Virus record (IMG/VR): IMGVR_UViG_2877948078_000004
Length of the DNA: 43,880 nucleotides
Strand: one strand, 5' to 3'
DNA from: a virus
Lineage: Duplodnaviria > Heunggongvirae > Uroviricota > Caudoviricetes
Positions 98 to 36,817 of this stretch are shown one piece after another (the stretch's first letter is position 1; every line of letters starts with the position of its first letter). A program made the translations under genes and the position numbers. Below the pieces are notes generated by a model that saw only the letters and a program-made list of their open reading frames with translations, had not been told where the DNA came from and did not search any database.

Positions 98-673
98 CTA
101 CGGCAGTGCTGGCCATTCAATATCCTGTGCAGTTGACGTATCAACACGGTTCAGCAACACCCGATACTTTTTCCAGGCTTCCAGCAATGAGGTTTCTTCC
201 TCCGTTGCGATTTCCAGATCTACAGCATCCTGAAGTGGCGCAATATGCTCACTGGCTACCTGCATCAGGCTGTTTTTTGTTTCTTCCGCCTCTCGGATCC
301 GGAACAGTTTTTCTGCTTCTGCATCTTTCACCCAGGCTGTGCCGTTCCACTTCTGAAACTCCCCTTCCGGCGATAACCAGGTAACATTTTCCGGTAACGG
401 ACCGAGTTCAGAAATAAATAACGCGTCCCCTGACGCTACGTCATAAACCGTTTTACCCCGATGGTCTTCAACGAGATGCCACGATGCCTTATCACTGTTG
501 AAAACAGCCACAAAGCCAGCAGGAATATCTGGTGGTGCAATATCGGTACTGTTTGCTGGCAGACCTGTATGAGGCGGAATATATGCGTCACCTTCACCAA
601 TAAATTCATTAGTTCCGGCCAGCAGATTATAAATTTTTATGGTCCGTGGTTGTTCACTCATTCTGAATGCCAT
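98..673 (-). CDS. tfa: Tail fibre assembly protein (lambda Tfa-like)
   Basis: 191 aa translation recognisably lambda Tfa-like ([21 protein letters not shown]...); immediately downstream of stf on the same strand with 1-nt overlap. Confidence 0.85.
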
Positions 674-29708: not shown

Positions 29709-29871
29709 GATTCCTCCTTGCTGCCAGTCGCAACCATTTTTTATCAACCAGGCTAGCGGTATATCCGAGCAGTGTTGGTATTTCGGATGGCTTCAGCTCA
29801 GGTTTACGCTTACGACGATTTGGTACTTTGTAGATGTGTCCGTTCATGACACGAATAAGCGGTGTAGCCAT
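29701..29871 (-). CDS. ninE: NinE-like protein
   Basis: 56 aa [56 protein letters not shown]; basic, nin-region position; track ORF extends upstream. Confidence 0.7.
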   Translation of the reverse strand: MATPLIRVMNGHIYKVPNRRKRKPELKPSEIPTLLGYTASLVDKKWLRLAARRNHG

Positions 29872-30326
29872 TACGCCTCCTGCTTGTCGCGCAGCAGCTG
29901 AAACTCGCAGCTCTGTGGAATAGTCAGGTGGCAACCAATATTCATCGCCCAGGCTTCAACCTTACACAGGAAGACATACATCTCTCCGGTATCAAGATCG
30001 GAGGTATGGCGTAACGACTGGATAGTGGTGATATCACCGGTTACGACATCAACCAGGTCTTTGGTTTCATAACCGAGATATGTGTGTTTGAGAGCATCTT
30101 TTACCCAAGCTGGAGTGGCGAACGTTTTACCCTTGCTGATGAGGTATTCACTGATTTCGCTGTACCACATGTGGCTGAGTGCATTCTGGGAAAGACTGCG
30201 TCTCTCGCGCCACGGTTTAAGCACCATGCGAAAGCATTTGCCGTCCTCCAGATAAGGCTGGATCTGCCGACCAATAGCGGTGAAGTTACCGCGATGCAGT
30301 TTGATGCCATCTTGTGGGAAGTTCAC
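29871..30326 (-). CDS. ybcN: YbcN-like nin-region protein
   Basis: 151 aa, GTG start with GGAGGTG RBS; DLP12 YbcN-like; first gene of the nin block. Confidence 0.75.
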
Positions 30327-30354
30327 GCTTCACCTCCGCAGAGATCAAACGCTG

Positions 30355-30460
30355 GATGCAAAAAAACGCAGGTGCATTTCTGCATCTGTGGCAAGGCGAG
30401 GAGTTCAACTTGTGGTCGCATATAATTTCCCAATCATATGCGCAGAAGTCACCGCAGGGT
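30355..30460. repeat. Copy A of a ~105-bp imperfect direct repeat (terminator-like hairpin on - strand)
   Basis: Shares exact 21-mer AGGTGCATTTCTGCATCTGTG (30370..30390) and 15-mer GCGCAGAAGTCACCG (30441..30455) with copy B at 31852..31872 and 31922..31936; on - strand the 21-mer forms CAGATGCA-GAAA-TGCACCTG followed by U7. Confidence 0.7.
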
Positions 30461-30496
30461 GTTCAGGCCAACGGTGACGGTATTATTGCTTATTGA

Positions 30497-30748
30497 TTAT
30501 GATTTTTCAATTTCATCAATAACCTTGTGATAGACAATACCAGAAAGGCCAACAGACAGTGGATGTTCATGAAATATTGGCTCATTTGCATAAACCCAAT
30601 GCCCGACAAATTCTTCTGGGCTTGATATGTATAACTCACGAAGAAAATGGAGATCCCTCTCTACAACTAATTTCGTATCGTCCAAGAGCGCTGCATTTAC
30701 GCTAGTTTTATGGCTGTGCATTAATTTACATTTGGTGAAGGACATCAT
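30497..30748 (-). CDS. Hypothetical protein (83 aa)
   Basis: ORF with strong AAGGAG RBS; no recognisable family. Confidence 0.5.
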   Translation of the reverse strand: MMSFTKCKLMHSHKTSVNAALLDDTKLVVERDLHFLRELYISSPEEFVGHWVYANEPIFHEHPLSVGLSGIVYHKVIDEIEKS

Positions 30749-30807
30749 GGCAAAAGCTCCTTTTTCTTATGAATCCATATGTTAGCTAAATTGGAGAGAC
30801 ACAGTAG

Positions 30808-31422
30808 CTAACGTTGTTTAATAACATTCTGACGCAAATGTGGCAATACTCGACTCCACTTATCATCCTGCCACGGCTGGAATTTTACATGTGCCGTTTC
30901 TCTGGCGAGGATTGCTCGCGCTCTGGTGAGTATCTGGGGATATTCTTGCTCGATGGAAGTGAAGCGACCAGCTTCACGATGCTCCGCAACCTGAAGAAGG
31001 GGAGTAACGTTCTGGCAGGCGGTTAACATCGCATCCCCAGCTCGCCATAACCAAGCAAGTGTGCAAAGTTCGTTATCAGTGAATTGTTTTGTGATCGGGG
31101 ATTGTTGAACTTCTCGATCGAGAATATCCAGAACCCAGCGGCGGAACTCTTTGGCTACAGGAGTTCGTGCAAACATGGCGATCAAATGGGCTCCGCGAAG
31201 GCTAAATACTCGAGACTCCTGCATTCCACGAGGGGTGGTCACTTTGACCACCCTTGTCATCATATCTGTAAATTCATCTGAGTGACGAGAGTAAATGCGC
31301 TGAACTGCTTTATCGTCCGCATATTCCAGAGCTAAACCAACTTCAGTGGCAGTAAGCCAAATTCTGTTATTGTGGCAAATTGGGGTAAACGTCGTTTTGT
31401 GGAATGCTAATTGAGTAGTCAT
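30808..31422 (-). CDS. Bro-N domain protein (putative antirepressor-like / DNA-binding)
   Basis: 204 aa; N-terminal region (…NNRIWLTATEVGLALEYADDKAVQRIYSRHSDEF…SLRGAHLIAMFARTPVAKEFRRWVLDILDREV) fits the Bro-N/KilA-N-like pattern; GAGGTGA RBS. Confidence 0.5.
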   Translation of the reverse strand: MTTQLAFHKTTFTPICHNNRIWLTATEVGLALEYADDKAVQRIYSRHSDEFTDMMTRVVKVTTPRGMQESRVFSLRGAHLIAMFARTPVAKEFRRWVLDILDREVQQSPITKQFTDNELCTLAWLWRAGDAMLTACQNVTPLLQVAEHREAGRFTSIEQEYPQILTRARAILARETAHVKFQPWQDDKWSRVLPHLRQNVIKQR

Positions 31423-31685
31423 AGTTTCACCTCATCAGGTTAACCATCACCACCAACGACGCCAATCGACTGGTGGTGAACTGTGCAAGGTTGGCGTAAC
31501 CGGCTACTCAAATCCGGCGCTCCCGAAGAAGCCCTCACACAGCCCACCATAATTTGGGCGTAGCCGTGCTTAGCGCATAAAAAAACCGCTTAACGCGGTA
31601 TGCGTTGAGTAGTATTCCGGGACGCCAATCCCGTGTGCCGATTTTGCGGCAACGCACAGAATATATCCCCAGATAAATCATGTCG

Positions 31686-31775
31686 TCAACCCCAGTAAAT
31701 GGACACCATGATGATCACAGCCATAGCTGCTACAACAGTTACAACTACCTCAGGCCAAAACATAACGATTTCCAT
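31686..31775 (-). CDS. 29-codon hydrophobic peptide (possible small membrane toxin-like ORF)
   Basis: MEIVMFWPEVVVTVVAAMAVIIMVSIYWG with AAGGTGA RBS; single predicted TM helix; sits just downstream (on - strand) of repeat copy B. Confidence 0.3.
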   Translation of the reverse strand: MEIVMFWPEVVVTVVAAMAVIIMVSIYWG

Positions 31776-31835
31776 ATCACCTTTAGCCGCCAGACGAATA
31801 GAGACTCCCAATTCTGGCTGTCGAAGTAAAACACC

Positions 31836-31943
31836 GAATGTAAAAAATCGTAGGTGCATTTCTGCATCTGTGAATGGAGAAGATAGGTTGGATTGTATGT
31901 GCGCATAAACGTCCCCGTTTAGCGCAGAAGTCACCGGAGTTGT
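31836..31943. repeat. Copy B of the ~105-bp imperfect direct repeat
   Basis: See copy A; the central ~50 bp differs between copies. Confidence 0.7.
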
Positions 31944-32033
31944 TCAGGCTCCGGCTTATTAATATTGCCTACTTACAATTAATTTTTCAACTGTTAGAAA
32001 CTTATAATTAGCTGTCTCTTTGTAACTATCAAT

Positions 32034-33930
32034 TTAATTATTTTTCTTTAACTTGAAATTTCTTCCCATTGCTAGTGTTCTTCGAAGATTCGAATCATAA
32101 GCTGGTTGATAATATCTATCATAAAAATCCTTAATTGTCTGATGGTAAGTATCCAGCATCAAACCATAAAACCCCATGACCTTAAGATAATCCACCAAGG
32201 GAAATAAATAATCATCAGTCTGAACATCAGTATCAATATTATTTTTTTGTTTTTTAACTTCAAATTTGTATAAGTTTAACTCACCCTTATCCATCGTGTA
32301 TGAAAAAAGGTCGTCAAAAATCAAATCAATTTTTGTCATAGGAACTCGTTCTTTTCCAGACATTATAGGTAGAATATCAATACCTAAGAGCGAACCTAAT
32401 ACAAAGTCGTAATGAAGCGAAATCACTGAGTCATTCGATGTCGAGTTGCCTTTGATAAATACTCTACTTAGTGCCGAGTCAAAAACATTCTCAACTCTCT
32501 CTCTCGTCATGTTTGCGACATCTACAACCCCCATATCACGAGAAGCTTTTATTGTGATTTCATCTATAAATGCTTTGGAATCTAGTGAATGTAAAAACAA
32601 CATGAAGTTATCTAACTGTTCAGAGCATTTAATAGCCACCATAAGATTTTCGTATATATCTTTTTTATACTCAATCGGTAAATTTGCTACCGCAAAAGCA
32701 GCATAAAATTCTTGCACTGATTTATGCAGAAAAACATACCTATTATTTCCCTCAGGTTGGATAAGGCAAGTTATCTCAATAAGATCATCTATAAAGTTTG
32801 ATGCATCTTCTTTAAGATAACCTTCTGTTTCAATAGCATCTTCAGCATATCTAAGCAACTCCTCTCCCCAAAACTCAAATTTCTCCTCAATCAGTGCGTT
32901 ATAGCAAATAGCTGAAAAACACAATTTAGCTTTTTCACCAATAATGTTTGATTTTTTCTCGCGCGTATATACTTTTATTTTATCATGCCTTGCATATAAG
33001 GTGTCAAAGAGGCTTCGATAAAACTCTATTATATTATTTGGAATATCATTCATATAAGGATAACAATAATACAAAAGAGTAACTAAAATTGGATTGCAAA
33101 TAGTTCCCTCAAGTTCTTCTTTATCACATAGTAAATCCGCCAAGACTTTAAACGAGGCATCACTACTTGAGAATCTGTCATTTTTCGATAAAGAATGAAG
33201 AATACAAATCTTATCAGAAATATTTAGCTTATCTATAAAAATATTATACACATCAGTAGTATAACATATATCTGTATTTGGTCTCGTTGTTGCGATAATT
33301 GGTGTGTTAAAATGATAATGAATGTTTTTTATTTCATTCATCATCATAGTTCGCTCTTCATGTTTAACCTCATCAAATCCATCCAACATTAAAACGACTC
33401 TTTGGGATTGCAGTAATATTTTCAAGCTATCCTCTGAACACCCCACACCAAATGAATTAAGAATGTCTGCCAGATAAGCAATAATATTTGCATTCTTCAC
33501 CCTTCTTAATTCAATAAAAAAAAGGCATCCGTTCTGATTTTTTTATTTCCTCGCTAAACAACTTGCGTAAAATAGTACTTTTCCCTTGCCCCGCTATACC
33601 GACTATATTTACAATACCATGAAATGGTAAAGTGACCCCATCTTTTATAACGACCTTGTCTTTATTAGATGCCACCTCAACAGTTAACGGATAATAAATA
33701 TCATCTAAAAAAATATCATAATCAGCGTTGTGCAAAGTTCTCATTTTCAGAGATGGTAGCACATGCTTTCTTAAATAATTTTCTCTTCCGAGGGGATCAT
33801 TTAATTGTTCGAGTATAACCTTGCCTTCATCTAGGTCCCTAGCCCAAGGTTTAGAGAGCAATACTTCTGTTATTTTTTCCGCAGCTTTTCCTACTGTGCT
33901 ATTAATAATAGTCGCAAGAAACTCATCCAT
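32034..33930 (-). pseudogene. NACHT/STAND-family P-loop NTPase, interrupted by a +1 frameshift at an A8/T8 homopolymer (33516..33523)
   Basis: Upstream ORF (33511..33987) ends just after Walker A (GIAGQGKST); downstream ORF (32034..33500) begins just before Walker B (VVLMLDGFDEV) and sensor-1-like IIATTRP. Removing one T from the T8 run (- strand) fuses both into a single ~630-aa reading frame. Low-GC island. Probable start at MDEFLATI (33930) with GGTGA RBS. Confidence 0.6.
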
Positions 33931-34318
33931 TTTTTCACCACATTCATTAACCAATACGTGGTGCATTCTTACAAGACTCAGTAACAATTGTCAATCATAG
34001 GTTTTCGCATGATTGCAAAACGCCATAAACAATTGTAGCACCATAATTTTAAACACTATATAATATACAACCTTCCTACAAGCATTCAGTACATCGCTTA
34101 ATCACAGGGCTTGAATATATAGTAAGGAATCGATATTAATCACCTCATCTACTTTAAACATCTTACACACCTATAATTTATAATAGTCAACACGAGGTCA
34201 TCATATTAAACATGCAATTACAAACATTCATTTTTATATAAATTTTCATGATTTAACCGTAGAGCGACGGTAATAAATTTCATATACAAGGATTTAAGCT
34301 CCCATACGTTTTCTATTA

Positions 34319-34498
34319 TTAAAAATAACATACCGTTCGCCAGACCTTACCATCAATGACCAGGATTCCTGCCCGCGCCATTTTTGCCGCAGCCTGATTT
34401 ATGCTGGTTAATGTCACACCTGTTGTCGCAGCAACGTCCGGCGCACAGAAGCTCTTGTGCGTCCCCAGGTAATGAATAATTGCTTCTTTTCCCGTCAT
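34319..34498 (-). CDS. ren: Ren-like protein, C-terminally truncated relative to lambda Ren
   Basis: 59 codons MTGKEAIIHYLGTHKSFCAPDVAATTGVTLTSINQAAAKMARAGILVIDGKVWRTV… match the N-terminal part of lambda Ren; stops where similarity to lambda ends; start overlaps P stop (ATGA). Confidence 0.6.
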   Translation of the reverse strand: MTGKEAIIHYLGTHKSFCAPDVAATTGVTLTSINQAAAKMARAGILVIDGKVWRTVCYF

Positions 34499-35196
34499 AC
34501 ACTGGCTCCTTTCAGTCCGAACTTAGCTTTGATTTCTGCAATCTTCGCCAGAGCCTGTGCACGATTTAGAGGTCTACCGCCCATGACAGGAAGTTGTTTT
34601 ACTGGTTCAGGTATAGCCTCACCACGGTTAATTCTCGCAGTCATATGGGCAAGTTCATCGGCAGCCTTGCGCCGTAATTCCGAGTCAGTCAACGCATTAG
34701 CCCGCATGTTCTGATACAGGTTGGTAACCAGCCAGTAGTGCGCGTTTGATTTCCACGGATAAGACTCTGCGTCCGGATACAGGCCACGCTTCCGGCAATA
34801 CTCGTAAACCATATCAACCAGCTCGCTGGCGTTTGGCAGTCCGGCGGTAACGGATGCTTCTTCCCGGCACCAGGCGACAAACTGCCCGGGTGATGGCAGG
34901 AATGGTCGATTCTGCCGACGGGCTACGCGCATTCCTGCGTTAACCTGTTCCATTGTGGTGATCCCGTTTTCCCGGAAAGCCAGAACCCACTGGCGGCGGA
35001 TTTCGTTCAGTTCGTTCTGGTCCCGGTTAGCCAGGCTCGCCGGGAAAGTTGCCAGTAACTGGCTGAACACACCGTTGATGATCCGCGCTACCTGCTGTAC
35101 CTGCGGCTTTTCGTCGTACTGTTCCGGCATGTTGTTGGCGATCCGGCGCATCTGCTCACGGTCAAAGTTAACCATCTGTGCGGCGATGTTTTTCAT
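34495..35196 (-). CDS. P: Replication protein P (DnaB helicase loader)
   Basis: 233 aa, near-identical to lambda P as I recall it (MKNIAAQMVNFDREQMRRIANNMPEQYDEKPQVQQVA…). Confidence 0.95.
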   Translation of the reverse strand: MKNIAAQMVNFDREQMRRIANNMPEQYDEKPQVQQVARIINGVFSQLLATFPASLANRDQNELNEIRRQWVLAFRENGITTMEQVNAGMRVARRQNRPFLPSPGQFVAWCREEASVTAGLPNASELVDMVYEYCRKRGLYPDAESYPWKSNAHYWLVTNLYQNMRANALTDSELRRKAADELAHMTARINRGEAIPEPVKQLPVMGGRPLNRAQALAKIAEIKAKFGLKGASV

Positions 35197-36748: not shown

Positions 36749-36817
36749 AATTGACTCCTTTAGTTTGAATTGACTGTTAAGTTGATTGCTTATTGTTAAA
36801 GAGCGTGAAATGGAAAT

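Follow-up and report, generated by a model that had tools for sequence, protein, structure and literature searches.

A caudoviral sequence of 43,880 nucleotides (IMG/VR record IMGVR_UViG_2877948078_000004; hereafter, the window) carries two imperfect direct repeats around a short run of genes, directly before its nin genes. What are these repeats, and how did they come to bracket that segment? The original prediction read the segment as a moron inserted at a terminator, with duplication of the target, or as a cassette carrying its own insulating terminators. Our analysis points elsewhere: both repeats belong to a single conserved regulatory element of ~190 bp, the 'nin leader' as we call it, of which they are diverged copies, and their arrangement appears to derive from recombination between phages.

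The repeats and the segment between them

The two repeats share an exact 21-mer, CACAGATGCAGAAATGCACCT on the minus strand, at 30370-30390 and 31852-31872. No third site occurs in the window at up to three mismatches (0 expected, from 100 shuffles). A repeat finder returned a 44-nt pair (30347-30390 and 31829-31872, 86% identity) and an 18-nt pair (30440-30457 and 31922-31939, 94% identity), which have a common offset of 1482. The imperfect repeat pair first placed at 30355-30460 and 31836-31943 is thus real, and it is longer than that, spanning ~186 bp (30327-30512) in the copy next to the nin genes (copy A) and ~163 bp (31828-31990) in the distal copy (copy B). Similarity begins at a promoter-like sequence, TTGAAA-N17/18-AATAAT/AATATT (30510-30482 and 31990-31961), and in copy A it extends to the start of ybcN. 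The copies are 69% identical over ~186 nt and differ in their hairpin-1 and hairpin-2 alleles; a profile and a covariance model detect both of them (E ~1e-24 to 1e-43). Their features are the following.

30327-30512, minus strand: copy A, read as the intact proximal nin leader, from the promoter -35 to the base preceding the ybcN GTG (nhmmer E=6e-43; covariance model R1, 127 bits; alignment with phage 82, phi80 and HK639)
30482-30510, minus strand: promoter-like site of copy A, TTGAAA-N17-AATAAT (promoter scan, 10/12 matches)
30449-30477, minus strand: hairpin 1 of copy A, conserved loop CUGAACA, then CUUCUG (-15.2 kcal/mol)
30417-30442, minus strand: hairpin 2 of copy A, GGGA loop, with the leader Shine-Dalgarno in the loop and the leader ATG in the 3' arm (predicted folds)
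30323-30421, minus strand: ylcH/orf33-like leader ORF of 32 codons (PGAP call in an identical genome; its TGA overlaps the ybcN GTG, as GTGA)
30360-30390, minus strand: hairpin 3 of copy A, CAGAUGCA-GAAA-UGCACCUG followed by CG and U7, inside the leader ORF (terminator-like in a scan; -7.3 kcal/mol)
30325-30352, minus strand: hairpin 4 of copy A, in which the ybcN Shine-Dalgarno GGAGG is predicted to pair with AUCUC (folding with pair probabilities)
29871-30326, minus strand: ybcN, NinB family, first gene of the nin–Q operon (phrog_72, E=1e-51; PGAP annotation)
31828-31990, minus strand: copy B, read as a distal, partly decayed nin leader (nhmmer E=1e-36; covariance model, 108 bits; leader read-out)
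31842-31872, minus strand: hairpin 3 of copy B with its U6 run (-4.4 kcal/mol; closing pair gone, CUG to CUA; unflagged by the terminator scan)

The Bro-N protein, the 83-aa protein and the 29-codon hydrophobic ORF proposed for the interval are all there as described, together with two structured RNAs and a further small ORF.

31686-31775, minus strand: hydrophobic ORF of 29 codons, Shine-Dalgarno AAGGTGA, the first gene past copy B (phrog_4612, E=2e-16)
31579-31651, minus strand: isrK-type RNA (Rfam RF01394, 60.7 bits; gathering threshold, 50); scans give it a separate promoter (31689-31660) and a terminator
31469-31554, minus strand: C4 antisense RNA (Rfam RF01695, 72.4 bits; gathering threshold, 45)
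31440-31550, minus strand: 36-codon ORF over C4, in the orf45 position (ORF list)
30808-31422, minus strand: antirepressor with Bro-N and P22_AR_C domains (Pfam E=5e-10 and 6e-16; PHROG anti-repressor Ant)
30497-30748, minus strand: 83-aa ORF in a variable cargo slot, ~40% GC (phrog_9613, function unknown)

The bracketed interior is the known isrK/C4/antirepressor module. It contains isrK and C4 RNAs, a small ORF over C4 and then an antirepressor gene, in the order of the Gifsy-1 isrK–orf45–anrP module, the working of which has been described (PMC4825925), and of P1 immI (C4 RNA–icd–ant). The a1b1 target, with a score of 37.8, did not reach its gathering threshold of 46.7. The Gifsy-1 module is found past Q, on its downstream side, whereas the one here stands between the replication and nin genes; unlike in Gifsy-1, a nin leader copy and the 29-codon hydrophobic ORF precede it and a variable cargo gene follows. 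IsrJ, considered as a positional analogue, was ruled out on the location of the Gifsy-1 isrK module. The hydrophobic ORF occurs, with amino-acid changes, in most loci that have two copies of the unit, and other genes occupy the cargo slot in other phages. The proposal that the interval is a separately acquired module is supported, and no recombinase is encoded in or beside it. An AT-rich NACHT module lies upstream of the cassette.

Structure and spread of the nin leader

The unit was found in 149 retrieved loci, and about half of the complete E. coli genomes have it (2826 of 5426). Phage 82, phi80, HK639 and K-12 DLP12 carry it immediately ahead of ybcN or ninB. Most lambdoid phages have a single copy before the first nin gene; more than 100 lambdoid phage contigs show it once, directly before one of these two genes. 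Copy A shows both homology over the whole unit and this position, copy B the homology only. The core of copy B is 90-95% identical to single-copy elements of other phages (~93% in the case of phage 82). A scan of genome contigs with the 14-mer GGTGACTTCTGCGC gave only chance matches in unrelated phyla.

The nin leader contains the gene annotated ylcH in E. coli K-12, where it lies directly before ybcN, and orf33 in phage 82 (X92588). The latter record already marks a putative -35/-10, a ribosome site and the overlap of orf33 with orf151, and its inverted repeat, labelled a possible regulator-binding site, corresponds to hairpin 1. The ylcH and orf33 records hold a small hypothetical protein gene and a guessed promoter only, and our literature search found no paper on ylcH function. 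This annotation does not include the four hairpins or their covariation, nor the stop-start overlap seen throughout the family, nor the presence of two copies around a cassette.

Along the minus strand, the unit consists of a sigma-70 promoter, hairpin 1, hairpin 2, hairpin 3 within the leader ORF, hairpin 4 and an overlap of the leader stop with the ybcN start (RTGA). The promoter consensus of the family is TTGATT-N17-CATAAT; conservation starts abruptly at the -35, with none upstream. A promoter also fits K-12 Term-seq data: the RNA 3' end mapped past the hairpin-1 homologue is retained in supplementary file 3 of Adams et al., where a filter drops 3' ends with a stop codon as the nearest upstream feature unless a transcription start site lies within 200 bp. 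The Cappable-seq supplement lists no start near the predicted start of the nin leader. Gifsy-1 has a diverged copy ~1607 nt upstream of Q, and a start site for its antQ operon has been reported at 1,600 bases (PMC4825925). An FNR or CRP site was considered for the promoter palindrome and rejected on its spacing, which is N8 rather than N4 or N6.

Hairpins 1-3 covary. Hairpin 1 has compensatory changes at all nine pairs across the family, hairpin 2 exists in at least four covarying stem types (predicted stability -13 to -17 kcal/mol), and compensatory changes in hairpin 3 are seen in diverged copies. In the family alignment, both sides changed in 16-21 of 28 pairs, and paired cells amounted to 95.7-96.4%; the corresponding share was 81-85% after shuffling and 22-38% in slid controls. 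The counts come from covariance-model alignments, which lean towards the structure of the model, since MAFFT had aligned the hairpin-2 types wrongly. The family sequences are, moreover, related by descent, so that the changes counted do not represent separate events. The minimum-energy fold of most copies pairs the U-run after hairpin 3 into a longer alternative hairpin, for which there is one compensatory case; it is absent from loop-variant and Klebsiella copies, however, and we treat it as secondary. The loop of hairpin 1 superficially resembles lambda boxB, yet a boxB/nut identity was rejected, as the phage has its own nutR boxA following cro, with no similar hairpin near it. The window holds no meaningful complement of this loop elsewhere.

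The leader ORF measures 31-34 codons across the family. Among 115 unique copies, the phase from the leader start to the downstream start is 2 mod 3 in every one, and the fourth base of the overlap is A in 114, across 19 combinations of start plus second codon and three unrelated junction sequences (again, through common descent, not independent events). Since a second reading frame is likewise open in 95 of the 115, openness alone is weak proof of the leader frame. Hairpin 4 is predicted in all three junction types, with an unpaired probability near 0 for the downstream Shine-Dalgarno, which places a masked ribosome site inside the upstream ORF by predicted structure. The upstream stop overlaps the downstream start in copy A, while in copy B the overlap and hairpin 4 are gone and the leader frame extends to 53 codons. 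What copy B, which now heads the antirepressor cassette, still has is the promoter, hairpins 1-3 and the U6 run; its promoter could be retained for a use of its own, such as driving the hydrophobic ORF, instead of being a relic.

A candidate gate into the nin–Q operon

We think it probable that the unit gates entry into the nin–Q operon by attenuation and translational coupling, a mechanism that we infer, and that it doubles as a recombination linker. Transcripts from the nin leader promoter would mostly end early or stay untranslated, keeping nin–Q silent. A ribosome starting on the leader would melt hairpins 3 and 4, suppress termination at the U-run and pass to ybcN by stop-start coupling. 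Copy A would be the intact gate, and would also block transcripts born in the cassette from reaching Q.

Two known arrangements resemble this proposal. In the pyrBI (pyrL) attenuator of E. coli, a leader ORF runs through the terminator. The nin leader has, similarly, a short ORF over a hairpin and U-run, which span codons 11-21 of the 32-codon leader, and by analogy termination should fail whenever a ribosome follows the polymerase closely. Unlike pyrBI, it shows no evident sensing codons or UTP-sensitive pause logic: the leaders share no conserved run of one codon and their N-terminal third is variable. Its start, moreover, is locked in a stable hairpin, and a predicted coupling layer is added. 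In the lambda PR'–6S RNA–tR' arrangement, a constitutive promoter has a terminator close behind it. Here too, a promoter and a short terminated transcript may stand ahead of an operon that is silent in the lysogen; the nin leader differs in its leader ORF with coupling, and there is no evidence of a Q-type factor at its promoter.

The original prediction labelled the repeats terminators, and part of that label stands. As claimed, a GAAA-loop hairpin followed by a U-run is present on the minus strand at the 21-mer of both copies, with the run directly past the stem (U7 at 30366-30360, 2 nt past it, in copy A; U6 at 31847-31842, 3 nt past it, in copy B). The position proposed for copy A, that of lambda tR2 before the nin genes, was also confirmed: it occupies the ren-ninB gap. 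The label falls short in that the hairpins are weak and are one of four in a promoter-bearing unit, inside a leader ORF. Taken as terminators, the hairpin 3s are weak by predicted stability (-7.3 kcal/mol in copy A and -4.4 kcal/mol in copy B, against -15.7 for lambda tR2). Their stem carries a conserved A·C mismatch, the U-run varies across the family (UUUUCU, AAUUCUUU, AUGUCUU), and a simple terminator scan flagged hairpin 3 of copy A and not that of copy B. In lambda, the same map slot before the first nin gene also holds a hairpin and U-run on the rightward transcript. That slot is only a 74-bp gap, with a single strong hairpin and neither promoter nor leader ORF, and the covariance model found no match there; the nin leader differs from tR2 in its weak hairpins, which lie inside a leader ORF. 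At tR2, the suppression of the intrinsic terminator by a nearby translating ribosome is reported as a measured effect (PMC4824070).

Each copy might, instead, mainly stop transcription, isolating the cassette, the upstream NACHT module and nin–Q from one another in the lysogen. We regard this as a minority possibility. Besides the hairpin 3 and U-run of both copies, the scan hit in copy A and the place of the unit in the slot of tR2, it draws on an RNA 3' end mapped by Term-seq in K-12 just past the hairpin-1 homologue. No K-12 3' end was mapped at hairpin 3, where the K-12 allele has a degraded U-run, so this is not a clean test of that hairpin. A stop before Q would also be useful given that isrK-type promoters are active in lysogens, with read-through into the antirepressor gene in Gifsy-1 (PMC4825925). 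Against a mainly insulating function stand the weakness of the hairpins and the lost closing pair of copy B, the location of hairpin 3 within a conserved leader frame, and the unit's own promoter, which points in the same direction and would be superfluous. A separate strong terminator stands, furthermore, just upstream of the unit in some phages (a Klebsiella phage and, by annotation, HK639). For the proximal copy A, by itself, an insulating role is plausible.

It is unlikely that the copies are two paralogous genes for trans-acting sRNAs of ~37 nt (to hairpin 1) or ~115 nt (to hairpin 3), with the leader ORF secondary. The conserved promoter and covarying hairpins of each copy would fit such genes, as would the single-stranded C/A-rich stretch ahead of the terminal hairpin and U-run and the short RNA 3' end in K-12, and isrK, close by, offers an example of one RNA acting both as sRNA and as mRNA leader. 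However, searches of Rfam with both copies matched no family, including AgvB, AsxR, isrJ and STnc100, even at E values up to 10, and we found no evidence of Hfq binding or of targets. The presumed seed region differs greatly among hairpin-2 types, and the strict RTGA phase and the masked downstream ribosome site favour a role in cis. The two roles are not mutually exclusive. Pas sRNA was considered and set aside, the preprint concerning another locus.

That the conserved item is instead the YlcH-like peptide of 31-34 aa, with a function of its own and incidental hairpins, is highly improbable: few gene-proximal copies have a broken ORF, PGAP annotates it and its centre, QMQKCTC(D/V)FLH, is conserved, but this conservation extends to synonymous sites and the centre becomes MLNG where the hairpin loop changes, the N-terminal (RTYNPNSLLPS, RPQSELLTLS or QTTIRTPFNQS) and C-terminal thirds (FDLCGGEA, VSVKEAV or LPLGGGV, tracking the downstream Shine-Dalgarno sequence) are wholly different among types, and the peptide matches no Pfam or PHROG family.

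Origin of the two-copy layout and its meaning

The same two-copy layout was found in 10 loci and in 299 E. coli genomes (~5%). Cassette-side copies in other phages have a single shared 3' junction and one hairpin-2 type (8 of 8 unique copies). Hairpin-2 type and junction type reassort, and all four combinations were found. In phage 82, the sequence preceding the 21-mer resembles copy B, and the 140 nt that follow it are 100% A-like. From these comparisons of sequences, we conclude that the layout was made by recombination between phages and not by insertion at a terminator. The one junction shared by all cassette-side copies suggests one old rearrangement that was spread by homologous recombination. 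In the history that we propose, one ancestral non-homologous join would have linked the 3' end of copy B to the module of hydrophobic ORF, isrK, C4 and antirepressor. Copy B would be an older copy that has lost the coupling but retained the promoter and hairpins 1-3. Recombination that moves, swaps or deletes the cassette would then find its homology in the conserved core of the unit, and phage 82 has the structure that a B x A crossover in the shared 21-mer should give.

Lambdoid mosaics are known for conserved boundary 'linker' sequences and for morons between exchangeable modules. The nin leader resembles these linkers as a short conserved intergenic patch with reassorting flanking alleles and variable cargo adjacent. 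It differs from plain linkers in being a regulatory unit under structural selection, and in being present twice in one genome as diverged copies.

The 21-mer is conserved far above its flanking sequence, and with the reassortment of flanking alleles and the switch of phage 82 exactly at this point, it could be taken for the recombination site of a site-specific cassette system, similar to an integron attC or a dif-like site. We consider this very unlikely. The cassette lacks a recombinase, and its left junction lies ~25 nt past hairpin 3, while a site of this kind should contain the junction. A switch at this very point is also what ordinary homologous recombination within a conserved patch would produce, and the invariance of the 21-mer follows from overlapping constraints of pairing, GNRA loop and reading frame.

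An insertion in this genome of a moron at a terminator, of which the repeats would be the two halves of a duplicated target, has hardly any likelihood left. Direct repeats do flank a compositionally distinct module, and the single-copy relative without intervening genes, for which the original prediction proposed to look, exists as an 'empty site' in phage 82 and K-12 DLP12. A duplicated target should, however, give identical or near-identical copies. Those found here are 69% identical, have different hairpin-1 and hairpin-2 alleles and are each nearer to elements of other phages, copy B to their single-copy elements; target duplication is therefore not supported. A repeat of 160-190 bp with a promoter and a leader ORF is, moreover, unlike such a duplication, and the same junction recurs in many phages and ~300 genomes.

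Going beyond the gate itself, we tentatively suggest, as a possibility short of an expectation, that the nin leader represents a phage cis-regulatory RNA of a class not yet described, made up of a promoter, four hairpins and a coupled mini-ORF, that gates nin–Q, and hence late genes and lysis, independently of N. The CUGAACA loop and the near-invariant hairpin 3 might bind a phage or host factor. The adjacent antirepressor cassette might then belong to this switch as well, by comparison with Gifsy-1, in which antQ-operon transcripts are raised by AnrP.

Seen as genome evolution, a regulatory patch that is conserved and serves as a recombination linker is less out of the ordinary. If the proposed regulation is true, the element would explain the existence of K-12 ylcH and of a promoter before nin genes that need silence, and would offer an easily mutated, concrete target for N-independent control of Q. 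It might also explain why cargo builds up at this spot, including NACHT, PD-lambda-1, BstA-like and HEPN genes as well as antirepressor modules. An unrecognised control element would then be present in roughly half of E. coli genomes and in many prophages of Klebsiella, Enterobacter and Salmonella, guarding the entrance to an operon whose last gene, Q, switches on late genes, lysis and the release of toxin by Stx phages.

The repeated unit and its distribution

The 21-mer CACAGATGCAGAAATGCACCT was found twice on the minus strand of the window (30370-30390 and 31852-31872), with no third site at up to three mismatches; by chance, no occurrence at all is expected. A repeat finder returned a 44-nt pair and an 18-nt pair with a common offset of 1482, and the repeats are located where the original prediction had placed them. 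Their length had been underestimated. On the minus strand, the similarity starts at a promoter-like TTGAAA-N17/18-AATAAT/AATATT and, in the copy nearest ybcN, extends down to the ybcN start codon, so that the units are longer and include the promoter-like site.

About 30327-30512, minus strand: copy A, the proximal repeat, before ybcN (extent by alignment)
About 31828-31990, minus strand: copy B, the distal repeat, heading the cassette (extent by alignment)
30510-30482, minus strand: promoter-like site of copy A, a degenerate example of the family consensus

Both copies retrieve the same short list of phages, comprising phage 82, phi80, HK639, HK225, lambda-like isolates, and Enterobacter and Klebsiella phages. 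Wherever its position was checked in lambdoid phages, the match, hereafter the nin leader, lies directly upstream of the first nin gene. In DLP12, a prophage of K-12, it carries the annotation ylcH and directly precedes ybcN, and the phage 82 record (1996; X92588) lists a putative -35/-10, an inverted repeat, a ribosome site and an 'orf33' overlapping orf151. IMG/VR pattern scans and a profile search placed the nin leader in 149 fetched loci, and BLAST in 2826 out of 5426 complete E. coli genomes. E. coli 2014C-4135 carries a prophage that matches the window at 100% identity. Its genes run in the order P, a truncated ren, a split NACHT gene, copy B, the antirepressor, the 83-aa ORF, copy A and ybcN-ninE-ybcO-rusA-ylcG-quuD, and its copy A is annotated with a 32-aa 'hypothetical protein'. 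No Rfam family matched the nin leader, our literature search found no paper on the function of the ylcH element, and its existing annotation is that of a hypothetical small protein only. Sequence comparison demonstrates the homology and position of the element, its promoter motif, its covarying hairpins, its stop-start overlap and the recurrence of the two-copy architecture.

Hairpins and probable promoter of the nin leader

The element contains four hairpins, numbered 5' to 3' on the minus strand. Across the family, hairpin 1 has at least 10 different stems, all of which pair, around a conserved loop (CUGAACA), and is followed by the conserved linker GACUUCUGCGC. Hairpin 2 has at least four covarying stem types and a GGGA loop, and a C/A-rich single-stranded spacer separates it from hairpin 3 (CAGAUGCA-GAAA-UGCACCUG, with an A·C mismatch and then a U-rich run). 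Hairpin 3 is almost invariant among E. coli phages; the changes seen are G-C to G-U, A-U to C-G and loops of GAGA, GACA or six bases, with several compensatory pairs in Klebsiella phages. In the predicted hairpin 4, the Shine-Dalgarno of the following gene is paired. In two covariance-model alignments, of 85 distinct and 31 diverse sequences, 95.7% and 96.4% of the cells were paired, compared with 81-85% in shuffles and 22-38% in slid controls, and both sides had changed in 16 and 21 of 28 pairs.

Conservation across the family sets in abruptly at the -35 hexamer (consensus TTGATT-N17-CATAAT), with no conserved sequence upstream of it. A palindrome, TTGAT-N8-ATCAA, spans the -35 and spacer in 78 out of 108 unique copies and looks like an operator for a dimeric factor; its spacing does not fit an FNR or CRP site.

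Published data on two homologues bear on this promoter. Term-seq in K-12 reports an RNA 3' end at 572349/572350, right after hairpin 1 (…GGUGACUUCUG) and 19 nt before the ylcH ATG. This end appears in more than one growth-condition listing, and the table that keeps it was filtered to drop ends with a stop codon as the nearest upstream feature unless a start site lay within 200 bp. The ylcH RNA is also reported to be 2-fold up in microaerobic growth. Gifsy-1 (L008 36492-36660, minus strand) carries a diverged copy before STM2620 (covariance model, 24.8 bits), with TTGACT…CATAAT, a hairpin 1 bearing the family's loop CCUGAACAA, and a hairpin over STM2620's own start codon; the leader ORF is absent. 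This copy lies ~1607 nt upstream of Q, matching the antQ-operon start site reported 1,600 bases upstream of antQ by Hershko-Shalev et al. (PMC4825925), who found that transcripts of this operon rise on AnrP expression. Given the K-12 3' end and the match in Gifsy-1, the nin leader promoter is credible by analogy, its start site and early 3' end being supported by these data of others.

Leader ORF, stop-start overlap and proposed termination

The leader ORF is ylcH/orf33. Its start codon (ATG; GTG in one type) is part of the 3' stem arm of hairpin 2, with a purine-rich ribosome site in and beside the loop of that hairpin. Its frame crosses hairpin 3 and the U-run, and its TGA stop overlaps the RTG start of ybcN/ninB. 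In all 115 unique gene-proximal copies, the leader start and the downstream start are 2 mod 3 apart, and in 114 of them an A follows the downstream start codon. Both rules hold for 19 different start-plus-second-codon combinations and for three junction sequences that are unrelated to each other. The leader peptide is conserved only where it codes for hairpin 3, its C-terminus tracking the downstream Shine-Dalgarno. An open frame alone is weak evidence, since 95 of the 115 copies have a second one as well; the argument rests on phase and overlap. Folding places the downstream Shine-Dalgarno in a hairpin for every junction type. Together, the phase, the RTGA-type overlap and this predicted masking are a signature of translational coupling via a masked ribosome site.

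Hairpin 3 had been proposed as a terminator. Its shape, a GAAA hairpin followed by a U-rich run, bears this out, and copy A does share the map position of lambda tR2, but its strength as modelled is doubtful. Truncated before the U-run, it forms in both copies at -7.3 kcal/mol (copy A) and -4.4 kcal/mol (copy B, where the closing pair is lost), compared with -15.7 kcal/mol for tR2, and a simple terminator scan passes copy A only. When the full length is folded, the U-run is often taken up in an alternative, longer hairpin. The K-12 Term-seq list has no 3' end at hairpin 3, and the U-run of the K-12 allele is degraded. As hairpin 3 is part of a translated frame, its suppression by a ribosome that closely follows the polymerase would be expected, as was shown for tR2 when placed close behind a gene (PMC4824070). 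In Klebsiella phage ST16-OXA48phi5.2 (L272 1355-1380), a strong canonical terminator, CCCCTCTCCTGAGGGGTTTTAT, is found just upstream of the nin leader promoter; as it lies outside the element, a tR2-like stop and the nin leader are separate features in that phage.

The cassette, the two-copy state and the proposed working

The segment between the copies contains all of the predicted genes (Bro-N protein, 83-aa protein and 29-codon hydrophobic ORF) and, additionally, isrK and C4.

31686-31775, minus strand: 29-codon hydrophobic ORF, MEIVMFWPEVVVTVVAAMAVIIMVSIYWG (phrog_4612), with a good ribosome site, preceding the isrK module; probably a small membrane protein
31651-31579, minus strand: isrK (Rfam, above gathering score)
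31554-31469, minus strand: C4 antisense RNA (Rfam, above gathering score)
Interior, minus strand: 36-codon ORF over C4 (by ORF position)
Interior, minus strand: antirepressor, a Bro-N/P22_AR_C protein (domain matches)
After the isrK module, minus strand: 83-aa ORF (phrog_9613), of lower GC

The combination of isrK, C4, the 36-codon ORF and the Bro-N/P22_AR_C protein identifies the interior as the Gifsy-1 isrK–orf45–anrP module, related to P1 immI (PMC4825925); the a1b1 target matched Rfam below the gathering score. Two nin leader copies occur in ten loci, nine of which (all but L103) share the hydrophobic ORF, isrK, C4 and a near-identical antirepressor. Most two-copy loci retain the hydrophobic ORF, with changes in its amino acids; in three (L115, L264 and L266) it has a stop at codon 7. 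The cargo after the antirepressor varies: a product of 83, 169 or 118 aa, a HEPN protein and its partner, or a homologue of DNA pol III theta accompanied by two further ORFs. The layout recurs in O157:H7 prophages, and copy B, hydrophobic ORF, isrK and C4 are found together in 299 complete E. coli genomes. In the IMG/VR locus L103 (6816-11089), a distal copy with an intact leader is followed by a 5' ybcN stub, ~4 kb of large ORFs without isrK or C4, and a proximal copy that fronts a gene other than ybcN/ninB.

Copies A and B share 69% identity, or 72% if only the RNA core is compared, and differ in their hairpin-1 and hairpin-2 alleles. The core of copy B is 90-95% identical to single-copy elements of other phages. 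Cassette-side leader frames are either extended to 40-53 codons or interrupted by stops. All eight unique cassette-side copies have one hairpin-2 type and one 3' junction (…ACATTCGGTGTTTT…), which falls ~10 nt short of where the ybcN ribosome site would be. These features point to a single old non-homologous join that then spread via homologous recombination. All four combinations of hairpin-2 type and junction type occur, indicating crossovers inside the unit. Phage 82, which fits the single-copy relative without intervening genes that the original prediction proposed to look for, is B-like from hairpin 1 up to the 21-mer and 100% A-like over the next 140 nt, as would be expected if B and A had crossed over within their common 21-mer and the cassette had thereby been deleted.

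Elsewhere in the window, an IS009 RNA (132-330, minus strand) scores 226.7 bits in Rfam (gathering score 117), and a nutR-type boxA, CGCTCTTTAACAA, lies at about 36794-36806 (minus strand), just after a cro-like gene, with no obvious boxB hairpin adjoining. A NACHT-like gene (32034-33987, minus strand) is split into ORFs of 158 aa (P-loop) and 488 aa, matching consecutive parts of the 672-aa phrog_18297. Its block has 29-36% GC, compared with about 50% around, and just upstream ren (about 34300-34500) is a truncated pseudogene (PGAP). The block resembles an AT-rich moron, distinct from the cassette, that has entered ren and is possibly itself broken. Directly upstream of the nin leader in related loci (L003, L004, L270, L273, L275, L277 and hit H94), the cargo differs by phage: PD-lambda-1, a protein with a BstA C-terminal domain, NACHT or a HEPN pair, a homologue of DNA pol III theta being very frequent. 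The interval that separates the replication genes from the nin genes thus seems to be a hotspot for cargo and defence functions.

Known kinds already cover the interior module, the mosaicism of phages at conserved linkers, attenuation through a leader ORF and translational coupling. We consider the whole reading of the nin leader, comprising identity, origin and mechanism, somewhat probable, its identity and origin being far more secure than its mechanism. According to this mechanism, most nin leader transcripts would end early or stay untranslated, the leader start being locked by hairpin 2. A ribosome that does initiate would open hairpins 3 and 4, counter termination and reinitiate at ybcN. 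Copy A would also shield nin–Q from isrK-promoter transcripts, and copy B would be a remnant that could still supply the hydrophobic ORF with a promoter.
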